NCBI GenBank assembly: GCA_910583945.1
Contig: CAJTYF010000004.1
Span: 3,597-67,596, forward strand
DNA length: 64,000 nt
Direction: 5' to 3'
Origin: an uncultured Bacilli bacterium
Lineage (GTDB): Bacteria; Bacillota_I; Bacilli_A; RF39; UBA660
The notes under the pieces were generated by a model. It saw nothing but the letters and a program-made list of their open reading frames with translations, was not told where the DNA came from and did no database searches. Positions 39,560 through 46,746 of this stretch are shown here, in pieces. The translations under genes and the position numbers were made by a program. The first letter of the stretch is position 1, and each line of letters begins with the position of its first letter.

Positions 39560-39700
39560 TCCTTTTGCAACTTTTTAGTTATTTTTTAATTAAAATTGCG
39601 ACTTTTTTATTGACAAATAATTTTTTATGGTTTATCATTAACTTAAAGGTTGCAATTTTAATGTTTTTACAACCTTAATAGTTCTTTGACAATTAAATAG
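39560..39700. promoter_or_regulatory. divergent promoter/operator region of the element immunity switch
   Basis: TTGACA-17 bp-TATCAT at ~39611-39639. Inverted repeat AAGGTTGCAA...TTACAACCTT at ~39645-39676. Direct repeats TTGCAACTTTTT / TTGCGACTTTTTT at ~39568-39610. Confidence 0.4.
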
Positions 39701-39888: not shown

Positions 39889-40128
39889 ATGAATGCAAGA
39901 GAGACTTTAAACTTAATATCAAAACAATGGTGTGATCTAAATGATTTAAGAAAACTTACAGGGCTAGGAAAAAATAATGCTATCAAGTTAAAAAATGAAA
40001 TAAGAATTGATTTAGAAAACAAAGGCTATTTACTTCCTAACAAGCTACTTCCTATGAATGAAGTTGTAAGTTATCTCAAAATAAATATAAGTTATCTTCA
40101 AAAAATGGCAAAAGAAGTTATTAACTAG
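39889..40128 (+). CDS. small hypothetical protein, first gene of the plus-strand module
   Basis: 79-aa ORF preceded by the RBS AGAGAGGTGAG. Confidence 0.45.
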   Translation: MNARETLNLISKQWCDLNDLRKLTGLGKNNAIKLKNEIRIDLENKGYLLPNKLLPMNEVVSYLKINISYLQKMAKEVIN

Positions 40129-40141
40129 AAAGGAGTTTTAA

Positions 40142-41095
40142 ATGAAAACAATAAGTGAAATGAGAAAAGAAGCAACAAAAAAAGACTTCATAGTTGATAA
40201 CCTAATGAAATCTAAAGGATTATATTGTCTTGTTGCTAGACCAAAAGTTGGTAAGTCATTATTGGCGTTACAACTTGCCAGCTCTATTGCAACAGGAACA
40301 ACCTTTTTAGGATTTAGGACAAGTCCATCTCCTGTCTTATATATTAGCACAGAAATGAATTCTACGCAATTAGTTGATAGAATTGATAAGATGAACTTAC
40401 AATTTAATGATGATAATTTCGTTATGATAGAACAAAATCCAAGTAAAAGAAAACTAAATTTAATGGATTTACAATTAAAATTTCAAACATTTGCTAATGA
40501 CTATAAAGGTCGATTTGTAATCATAGATATGTTTAGTGGAATTGATTTAAACAATGGTTATAATCTAAATGATTATCAAGATATGGGACAAGTTGTAATT
40601 CCAAAATTTAGAGAACTATGTAAAAAATATGACTTTACTATTCTTTTAGTCCATCACTTAAATAAGAATAATACTTCTTTGGGTAGTACTGCTATTGATG
40701 GATCAGTTGATGGAAAAATCACTTTAAAGCAGGATTCAAACCTAAAGAATAAGATACTTTTAAATTATGAAAGTAGAGACTATGAGGGATTAGATTTAGT
40801 TCTAAAACGAAATGAAAATTTATTATTTGAACTATCAGAAGTCGAGAGTGATGACTTAAATTATAATATACTAACTTTTCTAAATTATGCGATTAAACAA
40901 AAAGAATTTTCATTTAATGTATCGGATATAACAAGTAAATTAAACTTACAAATTACTCCATCAGCATTTGGAAAATTATTAAATAACAACATAGCAAATT
41001 TAGAAAAAGAAGGACTTCATATTGAGCAAAAAAGAACTTCTACTGAAAGAATATATGTTGCAAAATATGAAGAACCGACTTATGAAAATGAATAA
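40142..41095 (+). CDS. RecA-fold AAA_25/DnaB-C-like ATPase (RepA-like, common in Gram-positive mobile elements)
   Basis: 317 aa. Walker A ARPKVGKS in LYCLVARPKVGKSLLALQLA. Walker B-like RFVIIDMFSG. Confidence 0.6.
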   Translation: MKTISEMRKEATKKDFIVDNLMKSKGLYCLVARPKVGKSLLALQLASSIATGTTFLGFRTSPSPVLYISTEMNSTQLVDRIDKMNLQFNDDNFVMIEQNPSKRKLNLMDLQLKFQTFANDYKGRFVIIDMFSGIDLNNGYNLNDYQDMGQVVIPKFRELCKKYDFTILLVHHLNKNNTSLGSTAIDGSVDGKITLKQDSNLKNKILLNYESRDYEGLDLVLKRNENLLFELSEVESDDLNYNILTFLNYAIKQKEFSFNVSDITSKLNLQITPSAFGKLLNNNIANLEKEGLHIEQKRTSTERIYVAKYEEPTYENE

Positions 41096-41311
41096 TTTTC
41101 ATAAGAATTTTTGTAACTTTTATTATAAAAGTTTAGTTTTTGATAAAAAGCCTTTATTTTAAGGCGCAAATATGAAAATTAGAAGTAATTTTACTACTAA
41201 TTTACTACTTTAGAAAGAGTTTTGATAAAGAGTCTTGATATGTTATTTTAAAGAAACGATGGAAAGTCGTTTTTTAATTTTCCTAATAATGGTATAATAT
41301 TTATTAGTGAG

Positions 41312-41746
41312 GTGTTATATATGACAAAAGAAGAACAAAGAAACGAGGCAATTTATAGAATAAAAGAATTAACTAAAAAATTTAATCTTAATTCAAACAT
41401 GTTAGACTTTTTTGAAAATGGAAAAATTTATGGACTTGATTATGTAGAAGATAGTAAAATAAAAGATAGGAATAAATTGATTTCTAGTATTATAGCAGAA
41501 TGTCAAAATAAATATAATTCAATAGTTTATTACTATTTTATTATTGATGTAAATATAGAGGGTTATAATTTAGAGATACTAAATATATTTTATGTTGGAC
41601 AATATAAAGAAGATTGGGAAAATGAAAGATTATCAAAAGATAATGAAGTATATATACGCAGTTATGAACTTGGTAGTCCAAATTATCCCGAGTTAAGTTT
41701 CGTAAAAGTAAATTCAGTAGATGGTAATTTAATTAGAATATCTTAA
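41312..41746 (+). CDS. hypothetical protein
   Basis: 144-aa ORF. Confidence 0.45.
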   Translation: MLYMTKEEQRNEAIYRIKELTKKFNLNSNMLDFFENGKIYGLDYVEDSKIKDRNKLISSIIAECQNKYNSIVYYYFIIDVNIEGYNLEILNIFYVGQYKEDWENERLSKDNEVYIRSYELGSPNYPELSFVKVNSVDGNLIRIS

Positions 41747-42112
41747 AAAACAATTAGTTATATGCTAATTGCTTTTTTAATATTTCCAAAAAAATATCAA
41801 TATTCTATAAAAATTTGATTATTTTTTATTATCATTAAGACAAGCCTCTATCATACTTATAATAACATTATTAAAAGATGTATCATTGTCTTTTGCAATT
41901 TTTTCTATTTGTTTTACTAACTCTTCCTTTATATATAAAGTCTTATATACTGATACTATTTTCTTTTTTGTCTTTTTAGGTACAAAATTCATTTATCACC
42001 ACCACCCATTATAATTTTAACTTGTTAATAAAATAAAAGATAAATTAGAAAATTCTGGTGTATTTTTTAAAAAATAGTGATATAATTATATTGAACTGGT
42101 GGAGTTTAGAAA

Positions 42113-42736
42113 TTGAGAGGTGAAAAAATGAGTAATCTACTAGAAAAAGGAAAGGATATTTTTATAAAGATTAAAAATCAAGTTATAAAAATAGGAATTA
42201 AAAAAGTGGCTATTGGTGGAGTTATTGTTATAGTTGGTATAACTGGAATCGCTTTATTAAGTGGTGGAAGTAGCGATAAAGTGGTTTTAGCAAATGTAGT
42301 ACATCCTACATCAACAGACTATCCCTATTATACATTTAATGAAGTCAAAAATTATAATAAGGTAAATGTTAGTGGAATTAAATTAAAGCATAAAGAAAAT
42401 AAAGTAAATAATAATCAAACACTAGCAGGAGATGTTGAATATGTATTTACTATAAAAAATACTTCTAAAGAAACACTTGATAATATTGGCTATACTTTTT
42501 TCGTTAGAGATACAAATAACAGACCATTTGTTATAAGAAGTAAAGACCCAATAACTTTAAAGGCAGGAGAAAAAAAGAAAATAAAGATATCTAGTATATG
42601 GTGTGATGATGATTGTGATAAACAAACTACTCAAATACTTTTTATGGATAATTATGACAAAGACTATTCGATTTTAAATATTTATGAGGTAATTAATACA
42701 AATTCAGATGGAACAATTATTACAAAGGAATTATAG
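42113..42736 (+). CDS. membrane-anchored hypothetical protein
   Basis: 207 aa. N-terminal TM (VAIGGVIVIVGITGIALL). Confidence 0.5.
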   Translation: MRGEKMSNLLEKGKDIFIKIKNQVIKIGIKKVAIGGVIVIVGITGIALLSGGSSDKVVLANVVHPTSTDYPYYTFNEVKNYNKVNVSGIKLKHKENKVNNNQTLAGDVEYVFTIKNTSKETLDNIGYTFFVRDTNNRPFVIRSKDPITLKAGEKKKIKISSIWCDDDCDKQTTQILFMDNYDKDYSILNIYEVINTNSDGTIITKEL

Positions 42737-43556
42737 GAAAGGAAAATGTAAAATGAAAAAAATAAAATATTTAAGTTTAATTATGATAATAGCATTTATG
42801 CTAACTGGGTGTGGGTCAACTACAAATAATGAGAAGAAAGATGATAATAAACCTATAGCAGTTAACCCACCTAGTGAAACGAATTATAAGGGTGTTAAAA
42901 AGATAGTATATTTAGACCCTACTAATTTAAACAAAAAATGTACTGAAAGCGATGTAAAAAGTGATGATGAAACAAGAAGTGGTTGTATGAAATGGTATGC
43001 ATATAAGGAAGATAAAGACACTTATACAATGATATTAGACCACAATACAACAAATCTTGTTTATTGGTTGTCTCTAGAAGATTATGAAAAAGCAGGAGGG
43101 AATGTTACATATAATCAATTTGGCGACCCTAATTTGAAAACTGATAAAGGTCCTATAACAGCCCAAAAACAATTAGAAAGTGACACATCATATTGGGAAA
43201 AAAGTTTAAATGCTAGATTAATTAAAGTTTCTGAAATAAAAGAAATAGCTGGTAATATAGATAATACGTGTTTAGATACTAATTCATCAAATAAATATAA
43301 TTGGTTGTATGATAGAACATCTAATTATTGTGAAAAATATGGTTGTTTGAATAATGCAACAAAAGATGCATTAGGATATTGGACTGATACAGCTAGGGAT
43401 GAATATAGTGCATATCGTATTAGTCCAGGATTTAATCAAGATATCCTTTGTGGTGGTCAGTTATCTTTTGAAAATGGTAGAAGTGGAATTCGCCCAGTTA
43501 TAACAATACAAAAAAATGCTCTTACTTTTATTGAAGAAAACGAAAATAACAATTAA
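42708..43556 (+). CDS. putative lipoprotein
   Basis: 282 aa. Lipobox MLTGCGSTT after the signal peptide. The real start is probably the internal MKKIKYLSL. Confidence 0.5.
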   Translation: MEQLLQRNYRKGKCKMKKIKYLSLIMIIAFMLTGCGSTTNNEKKDDNKPIAVNPPSETNYKGVKKIVYLDPTNLNKKCTESDVKSDDETRSGCMKWYAYKEDKDTYTMILDHNTTNLVYWLSLEDYEKAGGNVTYNQFGDPNLKTDKGPITAQKQLESDTSYWEKSLNARLIKVSEIKEIAGNIDNTCLDTNSSNKYNWLYDRTSNYCEKYGCLNNATKDALGYWTDTARDEYSAYRISPGFNQDILCGGQLSFENGRSGIRPVITIQKNALTFIEENENNN

Positions 43557-43641
43557 ATAATTTAAAATGAAAAGTAGTATTTATAAATTTTTAAAAGATT
43601 TTAGATACTACTTTTATAATGGATAAAATGGTGGTAATGAA

Positions 43642-43938
43642 ATGACAATAAGTAATAAAGAATTAGCTAATAAAGTAATAGATTTATGTTTGATATATGG
43701 AATAAAGGACTCACAACTTTATATGGAATTTTTAGATAATCAAATAAAATTCTATAGAACTGAATTAAATTTTTTAGAAGATAGTAAACCTTTTTTCTTC
43801 CAAAAGAAGAAATTAGAAGAACATAATAAAAAAATTGAAGAATACGAGCAAAAAATTTTTGATGCATATAGGAAAATAGAAGAAGAATTTAATTTTATAA
43901 TTGAAATGCAAAATAACATTGATAATACATCAAAATAA
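43642..43938 (+). CDS. hypothetical protein
   Basis: 98-aa ORF. Confidence 0.4.
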   Translation: MTISNKELANKVIDLCLIYGIKDSQLYMEFLDNQIKFYRTELNFLEDSKPFFFQKKKLEEHNKKIEEYEQKIFDAYRKIEEEFNFIIEMQNNIDNTSK

Positions 43939-43977
43939 TTTTGGTACAAATAATTGTGATCCAAAATTATTTTTTGT

Positions 43978-44463
43978 TTGAGTCTATATTATATTGGTAA
44001 TAAATGGTATAATTGTAATGAAAGGACGGGCTTTATGGTTAATGAAATAAAAAATCAAGATAGTATCAAAATTGACGATATTTTTTATACTGATAGACAT
44101 TGTGGCGTAAAAGGACACTATATACAATTTTTCCAAGTTGTCGATGTAAAAGAAAATAACCAAGTTATATTAAGGGAAGTTAAACAAATACTTGATTCAC
44201 ATAACGAGGAAAATAAAGCACTTGTTATTCCATCTAAAAATCAATTTAAAGAAAGTAGCGTCTTTATAGAGGACAATAACATTGGGATAGTAAAATCAAT
44301 AGAATATGATGTCAATAGTAAAGATAATACACCTTATATAATTATGTCCCCTCTTACATTTAAAAATAAAGAGCCTATAAATATCAATGCTTATTTATGG
44401 GACGGACAACCAAAGTGTCATTATAACGATTTGTTTGAGTATATAAATGAGGAAAAAATATAA
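43978..44463 (+). CDS. hypothetical protein
   Basis: 161-aa ORF. Confidence 0.4.
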   Translation: MSLYYIGNKWYNCNERTGFMVNEIKNQDSIKIDDIFYTDRHCGVKGHYIQFFQVVDVKENNQVILREVKQILDSHNEENKALVIPSKNQFKESSVFIEDNNIGIVKSIEYDVNSKDNTPYIIMSPLTFKNKEPININAYLWDGQPKCHYNDLFEYINEEKI

Positions 44464-44488
44464 TTAAACTAATAAAAGGAGCGAAAAT

Positions 44489-44935
44489 ATGGAAAGTGAT
44501 TTAGAAGAGAAAATAGACGCATTAGCGTTTCAATTTGAAGATAGTTATTATTGTTCGGGGGAAATAAGTCAAAGTTTTGCAGAAAAATTTAATAAGTTGG
44601 TTGAATTAAAAGCAATAGAACCTACAGAATTTGAGGACGAGTTAGGTTTAAGTGGTGAAACATTTAGAAGATGGAAAAAAGGACTAATAGACCCATCATT
44701 ACAAAATTTAGTAGCATTTTGTATATTTTTTGAAATTGATATAAATTCTTTTACTGAATTACTACGCGCTGGTGGTTATACAATGAACTTTTCTAAAAGA
44801 AGAGACTGCGCTTATAACTTCCTAATTACTAATTGTATTGGTATGTCTATAAAAGAATGTAATATACTTTTAAAAAAAATAGGTTTAGAAGATAGCGAAT
44901 TACTACTTGCTCGCAATAAAAAAACGCAAAAATAA
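44489..44935 (+). CDS. hypothetical protein, possible HTH regulator
   Basis: 148 aa. GLSGETFRRWKKG resembles an HTH recognition segment. Weak. Confidence 0.35.
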   Translation: MESDLEEKIDALAFQFEDSYYCSGEISQSFAEKFNKLVELKAIEPTEFEDELGLSGETFRRWKKGLIDPSLQNLVAFCIFFEIDINSFTELLRAGGYTMNFSKRRDCAYNFLITNCIGMSIKECNILLKKIGLEDSELLLARNKKTQK

Positions 44936-45176
44936 CGAAAACTTTTATAAAAACTTAATAAAACTCCAACTTCCGTGTGGAATTAAAATCACTTGTATAT
45001 AAAGGTTAAAATTATAATTTACTAGTTTAAGGGTTATAATTTTAGCCTTTTTTTCTTTGATTTTAGCCACATGGCGTGTTTTAGAGATTTTAAAAAATTG
45101 TGTTTTAATGAACTTGTAATTTGAAAGGCGCCAACTAAAATTACACAAAATCTAACGAAAGGAGAAAATTAAGGTC

Positions 45177-45464
45177 ATGAAAATTATAGGTATTGAAGAA
45201 AGAATTGGCGTGTATGAAGATAAGCCATTTCATAATGTTAATTTTCATTGTGCGGAAGAGTTTAACAACGATAAAAGCGAAGGACTTAAGGTTTCAGTAG
45301 TTAAAGTAAGATATGATGTCTTAACCAAAACTTTTGGGAAAGAATTAACTACATCAGAAATTAAAAGTCTTGTAGGTAAATATATAGAAGAATTCCTATA
45401 CGATAGATATAGAAATGTTAGTTATGTTGAATTTGCTGACTCTACCGAAACAAGCAAAAAATAA
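45177..45464 (+). CDS. hypothetical protein
   Basis: 95-aa ORF with RBS GGAGAAAATTAAGG. Confidence 0.4.
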   Translation: MKIIGIEERIGVYEDKPFHNVNFHCAEEFNNDKSEGLKVSVVKVRYDVLTKTFGKELTTSEIKSLVGKYIEEFLYDRYRNVSYVEFADSTETSKK

Positions 45465-45560
45465 GTTACTTATTGACTTATTGACTACCGATTTGTTACA
45501 TCTTGCTATTGTTTTAAATAGTAGCAAGATTAACATTAAGGTAAATTTATAAAAATTATT

Positions 45561-45607
45561 GCTACATGCTACATGCTACATATAAGGGGTAATACTAGCC
45601 CTTATAT
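45561..45607 (+). promoter_or_regulatory. candidate rolling-circle origin with iterons and a stem-loop carrying a nonanucleotide-like loop
   Basis: Three tandem 7-mers GCTACAT at 45561-45581, then stem ATATAAGGG (45580-45588) / CCCTTATAT (45599-45607) enclosing the loop GTAATACTAG. The loop contains TAATACTAG, reminiscent of TAATATTAC / TAGTATTAC. It lies 130 nt upstream of the Rep gene. Confidence 0.5.
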
Positions 45608-45735
45608 GGTGGGGGGCTAAAGTGGCTACGCCACTCGCCCCACTCATGGGCGTGTATTAACTAGTATATGTATTAGCGCATTAGTTCTTTGAAAATTTAA
45701 TAATAATCTAAACTTTTAAAAATAGGAGTGATAAC

Positions 45736-46746
45736 ATGGCAGATAATAGCCAAAGTCGTAAATGGGCTTTAACGATTAACAACCCACTAGAACACGGCTT
45801 TACGGACGAAGTAATAAAAGAAACTTTGCAAAAATTCGCTCTTGACTACTATTGTATGTGTAAGGAAATCGGCAACGAAACACAAACGCTACATATCCAT
45901 ATCTTTATTTATTCAAAATCGCCGATTCGCTTTACAACGATACAGAGTCGCTTTAACAAAATAGCACATATAGAAAAAGCCTATGGGACTATACAAGATA
46001 ATATTGACTATGTGAGAAAAACGGGCAAGTTTGAAAATACCGACAAAGCCGAAACATCTGTTGAGGGCAGTTTTGAAGAATACGGAACGATACCATCGGA
46101 ATTACAAGAAAAAGACCCCGTTATAGGGCAATTATTAGAAGATATAAAAGATGGTAAGTCAAACATCGAGATTATAGAAAATAACCCACAATGGGCTTTA
46201 AAAATACGAGATATAGACTTGATAAGAGAAACTTATCTAGCCGATAAGTACATGAGAGAAAACCGAGATATAGTTTGTACATATGTCTTTGGGCATACAG
46301 GCGTTGGTAAGACACGAGATATATACAAAAGACATGGTGCTAAAAATATATGTCGTATCACGAATTATGCAAGTAGTAGAGGCGTAAATTTTGACTCATA
46401 TAAAAGCACTATGAATACCCTAGTATTTGAGGAATTTCATAGTCAAATACCCATCGGTGATATGCTTAATTATACCGATATATATCCCCTTATGCTACCC
46501 GCGAGATATAGTGATAAGGTGGCTTGTTACACTTATGTCTATATAACTTCAAATGTTCCCCTAGAGGAGCAATATTATGACTTACGATGTGGTTTAAAGT
46601 ATAGAGCAGTTTGGGACGCGTTTTTGCGTAGAATTCATAACATAATTGAGTACAAAAGTGATGGCTCAATTATAGTACATAAAATGACTAAAAAATTGGA
46701 GGAATTAGAAAATGAAGAAAATAAAACGAATAATGAAAAAAATTAA
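45736..46746 (+). CDS. rep: CRESS-DNA-virus-like replication initiator (HUH endonuclease plus SF3 helicase)
   Basis: 336 aa. Motif I WALTINNP (FTLNN type). Motif II HIHIFIY (HUH). Motif III YVRKTGK (Y..K). Walker A GHTGVGKT. Walker B LVFEEF. Motif C YITSNV (uTSN). Confidence 0.7.
   Translation: MADNSQSRKWALTINNPLEHGFTDEVIKETLQKFALDYYCMCKEIGNETQTLHIHIFIYSKSPIRFTTIQSRFNKIAHIEKAYGTIQDNIDYVRKTGKFENTDKAETSVEGSFEEYGTIPSELQEKDPVIGQLLEDIKDGKSNIEIIENNPQWALKIRDIDLIRETYLADKYMRENRDIVCTYVFGHTGVGKTRDIYKRHGAKNICRITNYASSRGVNFDSYKSTMNTLVFEEFHSQIPIGDMLNYTDIYPLMLPARYSDKVACYTYVYITSNVPLEEQYYDLRCGLKYRAVWDAFLRRIHNIIEYKSDGSIIVHKMTKKLEELENEENKTNNEKN

Follow-up and report, generated by a model that had tools for sequence, protein, structure and literature searches.

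The stretch analysed here, 64,000 nt of contig CAJTYF010000004.1 (hereafter the window), comes from a low-GC gut Bacilli/Mollicutes-like bacterium and carries a small integrated element built around a gene for a CRESS-type replication initiator (Rep). The rep gene is preceded by three tandem repeats (iterons) and two hairpins, described below as its putative origin, and is followed by genes for an FtsK-like ATPase, an excisionase and a tyrosine integrase. Around the element, the 64 kb consist of ordinary chromosomal sequence that encodes, among others, Pol III alpha, FtsX, MatE and glycosyltransferases. A preliminary description of the locus had read it as a CRESS-type Rep with a cognate hairpin origin inside a bacterial integrative element, and had suggested that the Rep doubles as the transfer relaxase of that element.

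A two-domain Rep of the pCRESS2 group

The Rep is encoded by an open reading frame of 336 aa at 45736..46746 on the + strand, and is a full two-domain CRESS-type protein, an HUH endonuclease joined to an SF3 helicase, with its catalytic motifs all intact. Every motif named in the preliminary description is present, with Pfam, phmmer and AlphaFold in agreement on the layout. The nuclease motifs are KWALTINNP (residues 9-17), which includes motif I (uuTu) as LTIN (12-15), HIHIF (53-57), which includes motif II (HuH) as HIH (53-55), and YVRK (92-95), which is motif III (YxxK), while the helicase contains Walker A GHTGVGKT (186-193), Walker B LVFEEF (229-234) and motif C ITSN (270-273), along with an arginine-finger motif, PARY. 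Among 14 aligned homologues that are 55-94% identical to the window Rep, residues H53, H55, Y92 and K95 are invariant, as are both Walker motifs, motif C and the arginine of PARY. Viral_Rep (PF02407) was the sole Pfam match of the protein (28.8 bits, cutoff 26), and PF00910 was not detected in it, yet was detected in the Reps of relatives. At the level of complete proteins, phmmer aligned residues 7-304 to the full-length Rep of PCV2 (7lar, E 5e-10), spanning both nuclease and helicase, and an AlphaFold model of the Rep (pLDDT 80.6) found its best full-length structural match in a redondovirus Rep (E 4e-12). When the model was compared separately with circovirus/nanovirus nuclease domains and with the PCV2 ATPase domain, target-normalised TM-scores ranged from 0.71 to 0.79, those for the ATPase domain (8xms) being 0.71-0.76. 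A Pfam scan returned no match of the Rep to PF02486, PF01446 or PF01719 (Rep_trans, Rep_1 and Rep_2), and the SF3 helicase is present. The alternative of a conventional Rep_trans/Rep_1 plasmid protein without such a helicase therefore fails, and the CRESS-type reading stands.

Bacterial CRESS-like Reps have been divided into nine groups, pCRESS1-9 (Kazlauskas, Varsani, Koonin and Krupovic 2019, PMC6668415), of which pCRESS2 is distinguished by Glu-Glu in Walker B, Asn in motif C and the absence of YLxH (PMC6668415). The window Rep has FEEF, TSN, YVRK in place of YLxH, and HIH, that is, HUH and not HUQ. In BLASTP comparisons with sequences taken from the supplementary alignment of PMC6668415, it displayed 39-43% identity (179-243 bits) to published pCRESS2 proteins and 24-26% identity (68-77 bits) to pCRESS1, groups pCRESS3-9 being excluded by motifs only. 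By sequence comparison, the Rep is thus assigned to the published pCRESS2 group. At least 1875 relatives were found in the protein database. Members of the database clusters carry newer accessions or none and are not linkable to the accessions listed by Kazlauskas 2019. A search of PLSDB for autonomous plasmid relatives yielded only p4M of Bifidobacterium, at 28.6% identity.

A covarying hairpin with a circovirus-type nonamer upstream of rep

Fold prediction, comparison of loci and covariation together delineate an origin hairpin on the minus strand at 45579-45608, with its rep-proximal end 128 nt from the rep ATG. Its stem, CATATAAGGG / CCCTTATATG, is 10 bp long and not 9 bp as first described. 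On the + strand, the 10-nt loop reads GTAATACTAG (45589-45598), and the TAATACTAG reported earlier is indeed found there; what is conserved, though, is the complementary nonamer TAGTATTAC of the minus strand (45597..45589), where the loop is C-TAGTATTAC. The sequences containing the loop are 5'-CTAGTATTAC-3' and 5'-GGGCTAGTATTACCCC-3' on the minus strand and 5'-GGGGTAATACTAGCCC-3' on the plus strand. The nonamer TAGTATTAC is identical to that of circoviruses and nanoviruses. Adjoining the hairpin are the three tandem 7-nt iterons (45560-45580), which on the minus strand read ATGTAGC three times and follow the nick hairpin immediately on its 3' side, and which on the + strand read TGCTACA three times; a two-unit iteron match, GCTACATGCTACAT, has 0.00 occurrences expected by chance in the window. 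The three iterons and the nonanucleotide-in-loop geometry of the preliminary description are hence borne out, as a TAGTATTAC loop with adjacent iterons that is conserved and linked to rep. Repeats of ATGTAGC 3' of the hairpin are also present in most relatives of the Clostridia clade. In circoviruses (PCV origins), the iterons likewise lie 3' of the stem on the nicked strand. With the nick position taken from circovirus biochemistry, cleavage is predicted at TAGTATT|AC, between 45591 and 45590 of the minus strand. A second, G+C-rich hairpin was predicted by folding at 45609..45645, where it flanks the nick hairpin on the 5' side along the putative nicked strand, and relatives also carry a G+C-rich hairpin at the same relative position.

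Conservation of this arrangement was assessed across 80 fetched genomic loci (numbered L001 onward) with Reps 53-100% identical to the window Rep, the closest coming from uncultured Bacilli, Tenericutes and Mycoplasma metagenome-assembled genomes (MAGs) and the 53-60% group from Clostridia. Sufficient sequence upstream of rep was available for 78 loci (the window and 77 of those fetched), and every one of them has a hairpin with an AGTATTA-type loop there; its stem is perfect and at least 9 bp long in 77 of them and imperfect in L070. Over the 948 kb examined, perfect hairpins of this size arise at a background rate of 0.21 per kb, and 75 of the 98 occurrences of the octamer AGTATTAC fall within the 300 nt upstream of rep. 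Stem covariation among 35 distinct hairpins scored 0.332 vs 0.105 for shuffles, a score reached by none of 500 shuffles, with slid registers attaining at most 0.105, and changes were found on both sides in 12 of the 15 stem pairs. Given this universal conservation, the clustering of the octamer and the compensatory changes, we conclude that the hairpin is real and selected as a structure. Taken together, the comparative evidence identifies the hairpin and iterons as the predicted, conserved cognate origin of the Rep.

The same observations bear on whether the locus could be a decayed remnant, or a chance hairpin beside a Rep pseudogene. All that speaks for this is an AT-rich background, in which TAGTATTAC alone occurs twice in the window vs 0.87 times expected. 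The open reading frame is nonetheless intact with invariant catalytic residues, the hairpin is conserved with compensatory changes, and near-identical copies of the element sit at different sites in several genomes. This explanation, to which we had attached next to no credence, is already refuted by the invariant residues, the conservation of the origin and the covariation. The second TAGTATTAC of the window (52364-52372, followed by GTAGCA) lies inside a second integrase gene as part of a conserved coding motif, with no flanking hairpin, and was judged a chance occurrence. The AGTATTAC matches that several loci carry 6.2-6.6 kb downstream of rep were likewise put down to chance, as they lie in unrelated contexts.

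Inversion of the origin module in the window clade

When the origin module of the window (45560-45645) is set beside the regions upstream of rep in relatives (L019-L080), two orientations relative to rep emerge: 61 loci have the module direct and 17 have it inverted. In loci of the Clostridia clade, the strand that codes for Rep carries, in order, the G+C-rich hairpin, the stem, the loop TAGTATT(AC), the other stem arm, ATGTAGC ATGTAGC, a ribosome-binding site and the ATG. In the window clade (Reps at least 62% identical), the + strand instead reads TGCTACA three times, stem, loop GTAATACTAG, stem and G+C-rich hairpin, an exact reverse complement of that module, and the window origin, once reverse-complemented, aligns to the direct-orientation origins of relatives. 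Because the module is inverted in this clade, the conserved nonamer TAGTATTAC lies on the minus strand, opposite rep, so that nicking and displacement are predicted for the strand that does not code for Rep. Whole-module inversion in one clade represents a natural experiment on strand choice.

Several further sequence features surround the origin. Between the G+C-rich hairpin and rep is a conserved stretch (45650-45715) with two TGTATTA repeats and a TAGTTCTTTGAAAATTTAATA box. The box recurs at 39679-39699 (90% identity), upstream of a neighbouring helix-turn-helix gene, and could be a promoter or operator element common to both sites. The nick-hairpin arm also has a degenerate inverted copy, at 45648-45672. 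On the other side, at 45500-45530 and shortly past the gene for a 95-aa OB-fold protein described below, is a 15-bp inverted repeat, ATCTTGCTATTGTTT / AAATAGTAGCAAGAT, whose TTGCTA and TAGCAA cores resemble the iterons. It is shared by L002, L006, L007, L008 and L013, and may be a terminator or an additional Rep-binding site.

An 8.5-kb integrative mobilizable element

Comparison of loci, rather than att repeats, was used to set the ends of the host element, which spans about 8.5 kb at 41127..49605 on the + strand, its right end at approximately 49603-49605 being uncertain by a few bases. On the right side, homology to L001-L013 ends at 49592-49617; on the left, the terminal sequence is conserved in L003-L008 while the flanks differ; and one contig of 8376 nt (L005) corresponds exactly to the element, end to end. 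The termini are imperfect inverted repeats, AAAAGTTTAGTTTTTGA... on the left and ...CAAAAAACTATATAACTTTT on the right. A search for direct att repeats flanking the element yielded only an internal 35-nt repeat, ATTTTACTAC-N-AATTTACTAC, which we take as candidate arm-type sites for the N-terminal domain of the Tn916-like integrase: a left double repeat at 41183..41217 (+), 61 nt inside the left end and conserved in L003-L008, and a right copy at 49435..49469 (+), which overlaps the 3' part of int and is separated by about 137 nt from the right end of the element.

Downstream of rep, the element encodes an FtsK/SpoIIIE-type ATPase (46712..47926, +), a TcpA-like candidate coupling protein by Pfam and PHROG comparison that has two N-terminal hydrophobic helices, followed by a Tn916-type excisionase (47927..48163, +; PF09035, 69.4 bits) and a Tn916-type tyrosine integrase with an N-terminal arm-binding domain (48241..49530, +; PF00589, 124.9 bits; PF02920, 113.5 bits). 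The gene order rep, ftsK, xis, int recurs across the family. In the window and 32 relatives, the gene after rep was assigned to FtsK_SpoIIIE (PF01580) in 29 of the 33 loci and to TrwB_AAD_bind in 20, and the window ATPase matched the FtsK/SpoIIIE-like PHROG at 6.6e-14. Searches of Pfam, NCBIfam and PHROGs revealed neither secretion genes nor phage structural or capsid genes in the element. The integration and the coupling to an FtsK/TcpA-like ATPase and Tn916-type Xis/Int that had been described are therefore upheld, and the absence of secretion genes makes this a mobilizable and not a conjugative element. Its makeup is that of class 7 of Coluzzi, namely PF02407, an FtsK-related ATPase (in the window below the Pfam cutoff) and a tyrosine integrase, without secretion genes. 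With no capsid gene, a length of 8.5 kb and a chromosomal location, the element is not a Cressdnaviricota virus.

Directly 5' of the origin, the element encodes a 95-aa protein (45177..45464, +) with a predicted OB fold, a candidate single-stranded-DNA-binding partner of the Rep. A possible DUF961/HelP identity found no backing, as 20 orthologues or positional analogues of this small open reading frame were without a Pfam match, and a PDB profile search with it returned only a spurious dextranase match. Across relatives, this slot is occupied by at least three types of small protein with no detectable mutual similarity, none with a Pfam match: the 95-aa OB-fold protein (window 45177-45464), a protein of 64-67 aa and a conserved one of 105-130 aa (L004 6553-6744; L016 6440-6793; L024 6556-6870). 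Only the 95-aa protein of the window received a fold assignment. This suggests that the small accessory protein 5' of the origin has been replaced repeatedly.

Copies of the element with 88-99.7% identity were found at different insertion sites in different MAGs, which speaks for an active element. In six genomes the flanks differ, being T-rich on the left and A-rich on the right, and such varied flanks fit a Tn916-type Xis (PF09035) and a PF02920 integrase. The window contains no tRNA gene that could serve as integration target.

Related Reps with a shared type of origin hairpin in gut inoviruses

Reps with 40-42% identity to the window Rep are encoded by six complete circular genomes of 5.7-10.2 kb whose records assign them to inoviruses (‘bajarodino virus’). 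Two of the six were examined, L081 (PQ006124.1) and L082 (PQ006121.1), and both carry true Zot genes and Reps composed of Viral_Rep and an SF3 helicase domain. Each has a hairpin with loop CTAGTATTAC on the rep strand, 135-165 nt upstream of rep (L081: hairpin 1840-1866, rep 1987-2991; L082: hairpin 756-785, rep 934-1941). Inovirus Reps have been described as lacking a helicase domain (Kazlauskas 2019, PMC6668415), to which the one inovirus protein family that combines a rolling-circle endonuclease with an S3H helicase motif, iPF_00203 (Roux 2019, PMC6813254), is an exception. The occurrence of Rep and origin in these phages shows that the pair travels as a unit and serves replicons that must make circular single strands. 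It supports a rolling-circle activity of the Rep and origin, and it does not decide whether the pair has a role in transfer in the mobilizable elements.

These gut inoviruses share with the window element the HUH + SF3 Rep and the TAGTATTAC-loop hairpin upstream of rep, but they are phages, with Zot and coat-type genes and with neither an FtsK-like ATPase nor a Tn916-type Int/Xis. The element itself, which unlike them has no Zot match, is not an inovirus prophage. A further scenario is that it is a satellite of filamentous phages, the single strands made by its Rep being packaged by a co-resident inovirus rather than conjugated. That related Reps and TAGTATTAC hairpins initiate complete inovirus genomes from gut samples is compatible with such a lifestyle, yet the element lacks genes for Zot, coat or adsorption proteins, matched none of the structural PHROGs and yielded no packaging signal, whereas the FtsK-like ATPase and Tn916-type Int/Xis are hallmarks of conjugation-related elements. 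We consider the satellite scenario very improbable.

A candidate relaxase and transfer origin

We favour, with reasonable though not high confidence, a model in which a pCRESS2-family rolling-circle module, consisting of the Rep and its cognate origin, resides within an 8.5-kb integrative mobilizable element, the Rep likely doubling as a relaxase and the origin as an origin of transfer (oriT). Under this model, Int and Xis would excise the element as a circle, Rep would bind the ATGTAGC iterons, and the hairpin would be extruded, allowing Tyr92 to cut TAGTATT|AC on the minus strand and stay linked to the 5' end. The SF3 helicase would unwind the circle while a host polymerase extends the 3' OH, and the resulting rolling-circle replication would both keep the excised circle and release single strands, with the OB-fold protein coating the displaced strand. 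The Rep-bound strand would then most likely be handed to the membrane-anchored FtsK/TcpA-like ATPase and exported via the secretion system of a co-resident conjugative element. For excision, iteron binding, nicking and helicase-driven replication, strong homology argues that these steps probably occur as outlined. For the transfer step, in which the strand would pass to the ATPase and out through a helper system, gene linkage and the analogy with ICEBs1/Tn916 suggest roughly even chances. The specific proposition of a Rep that acts as a genuine conjugative relaxase, with the TAGTATTAC hairpin as its oriT, is one that we advance tentatively and rate as somewhat doubtful.

The main rival to this model is replication only: the element would be an integrated plasmid, its Rep and origin would just replicate the excised circle, and the FtsK-like ATPase would segregate or resolve DNA. 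Integrated pCRESS elements have indeed been termed integrated plasmids and their ATPase an FtsK-like DNA segregation ATPase (PMC6668415), this pair of Rep and origin works simply as a replication module in inoviruses, and a built-in helicase is typical of replication initiators. However, the ATPase has N-terminal membrane helices, and TrwB_AAD_bind, the domain found in 20 of the 33 loci, is a coupling-protein domain. The combination of OB-fold protein, origin, nickase and FtsK-like ATPase moreover mirrors the DNA-processing modules of ICEBs1 and Tn916 (PMC5357655), and an Int/Xis element without a transfer route would spread poorly, yet near-identical copies are found at different sites in several MAGs. 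On balance, we judge an element confined to replication to be unlikely, though a serious contender.

Several observations weigh against a transfer role. To our knowledge, the fusion of an SF3 helicase to a relaxase is unprecedented, which favours the replication-only explanation. The match of the window ATPase to PF01580 reached 20.1 bits, below the cutoff of 24, and no helper secretion system was found in the 64-kb window. The proposed nick position and strand choice are drawn from circovirus analogy and comparative orientation. No experimental test of a PF02407 Rep as a relaxase was found in the searchable literature, subscription journals not covered, and the one study of integrative mobilizable element (IME) mobilization found that postdates 2017 concerns Rep_trans IMEs.

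If the transfer model is correct, the Rep would be the first relaxase with a built-in SF3 helicase, and an FtsK-like coupling ATPase would receive a strand nicked in circovirus style. With the origin inverted, as in the window clade, genes would reach the recipient in the opposite order. A bacterial transfer origin would also be tied directly to the cis-acting origin used by CRESS-DNA viruses of eukaryotes.

Genomic neighbourhood of the element

The element sits in an AT-rich palindrome just past an AAA_25/DnaB_C-like gene (40142..41095), between flanking regions at 39889-41126 and 49606-52583. L001 uses the same target in the opposite orientation. To the right are a MobV relaxase gene (49915..51348) and the second tyrosine integrase gene (51372..52583), and the element and this MobV/integrase region look like a nested or tandem pair of mobilizable elements. 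For the outer MobV/integrase island, a search for att repeats revealed no repeat of at least 11 nt.

Close to the mobile island, immediately on its left, is a Fic/DOC protein gene (35650-36831, minus strand), near which a gene at 31708-33915 (minus strand) encodes a 735-aa protein with AAA_33 kinase, metallophosphatase and T4-type RNA ligase domains in a Pnkp-type RNA-repair architecture. Further left, a 949-aa protein (19254-22103, minus strand) combines an M6 peptidase domain and a GLUG motif with a C-terminal type I dockerin, which is unusual in a very low-GC Bacilli/Mollicutes-like genome.

Comparison with known systems

In kind, the element adds little that is new: elements of this sort were published in 2019 (PMC6668415) and the relaxase hypothesis in 2017 (PMC5357655, PMC5704250), so that the novelty claimed in the preliminary description was overstated. 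Outside pCRESS groups 7 and 9, 97.5% of the Reps lie in integrated elements with tyrosine integrases, and groups 1-3, 5 and 8 share FtsK-like ATPases and SSB proteins (PMC6668415). With published pCRESS2 elements in particular, the window element shares the HUH + SF3 Rep (39-43% identity, Glu-Glu Walker B, Asn motif C), the FtsK-like ATPase, an SSB-like protein, a tyrosine integrase and the absence of a capsid gene. It differs in its Tn916-type Int/Xis and varied T-rich/A-rich insertion sites, whereas the published elements integrate site-specifically into tRNA genes or rpsI, and in having a defined origin, inverted relative to rep, while the available part of PMC6668415 yielded no description of theirs.

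A class of streptococcal IMEs likewise combines a PF02407 Rep with a TcpA-type ATPase and a tyrosine integrase (Coluzzi 2017, PMC5357655; Guedon 2017, PMC5704250), and the PF02407 Rep was proposed there to be a non-canonical relaxase, with a possible second role in maintenance of the element after excision (PMC5357655, PMC5704250). These class 7 elements (e.g., IME_SiniSF1_ebfC) resemble the window element in the Rep gene beside a TcpA-type ATPase gene, the tyrosine integrase, the small size and the lack of secretion genes. Their hosts are Streptococcus, while the window element and its relatives come from gut Bacilli/Mollicutes-like MAGs, and their tcpA lies upstream of rep (PMC5357655), whereas the ATPase gene of the window lies downstream. 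The streptococcal class 7 Reps may be pCRESS1 rather than pCRESS2.

The nickase of ICEBs1 and of Tn916 acts in replication as well as in transfer. The DNA-processing modules of these elements (HelP, FtsK-like coupling protein, oriT and the Rep_trans relaxase NicK/Orf20) have counterparts in the small OB-fold protein, FtsK-like membrane ATPase, nick site and rolling-circle-type nickase of the window element, the Int/Xis of which is also of Tn916 type. The window nickase, by contrast, belongs to an unrelated family (HUH + SF3, not Rep_trans) and brings its own helicase, and the element has no secretion genes.

What is new here is the cis element. No published description of a pCRESS (pCRESS2) origin or nonanucleotide was found in the searchable literature, subscription journals not covered, and our comparisons indicate that a covarying hairpin with the exact circovirus/nanovirus nonamer TAGTATTAC precedes rep across the pCRESS2 family, the hairpin with its 3' iterons being common to the mobilizable elements and inoviruses of that family. 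Such a defined origin offers a precise substrate for nicking, replication and mobilization work on this class of Rep. With the origins of circoviruses and nanoviruses, it shares TAGTATTAC in a hairpin loop, tandem repeats of Rep-binding type that adjoin the stem on its 3' side along the strand to be nicked, and a Rep of the same fold. Unlike those viruses, however, the window replicon is bacterial, far larger, integrated and without a capsid gene; its iteron is ATGTAGC; its Rep has HUH (H-I-H) where circovirus Rep has HUQ; and the origin of its clade lies on the strand opposite rep. The link between bacterial plasmids and CRESS viruses is thus extended from the protein to the origin.

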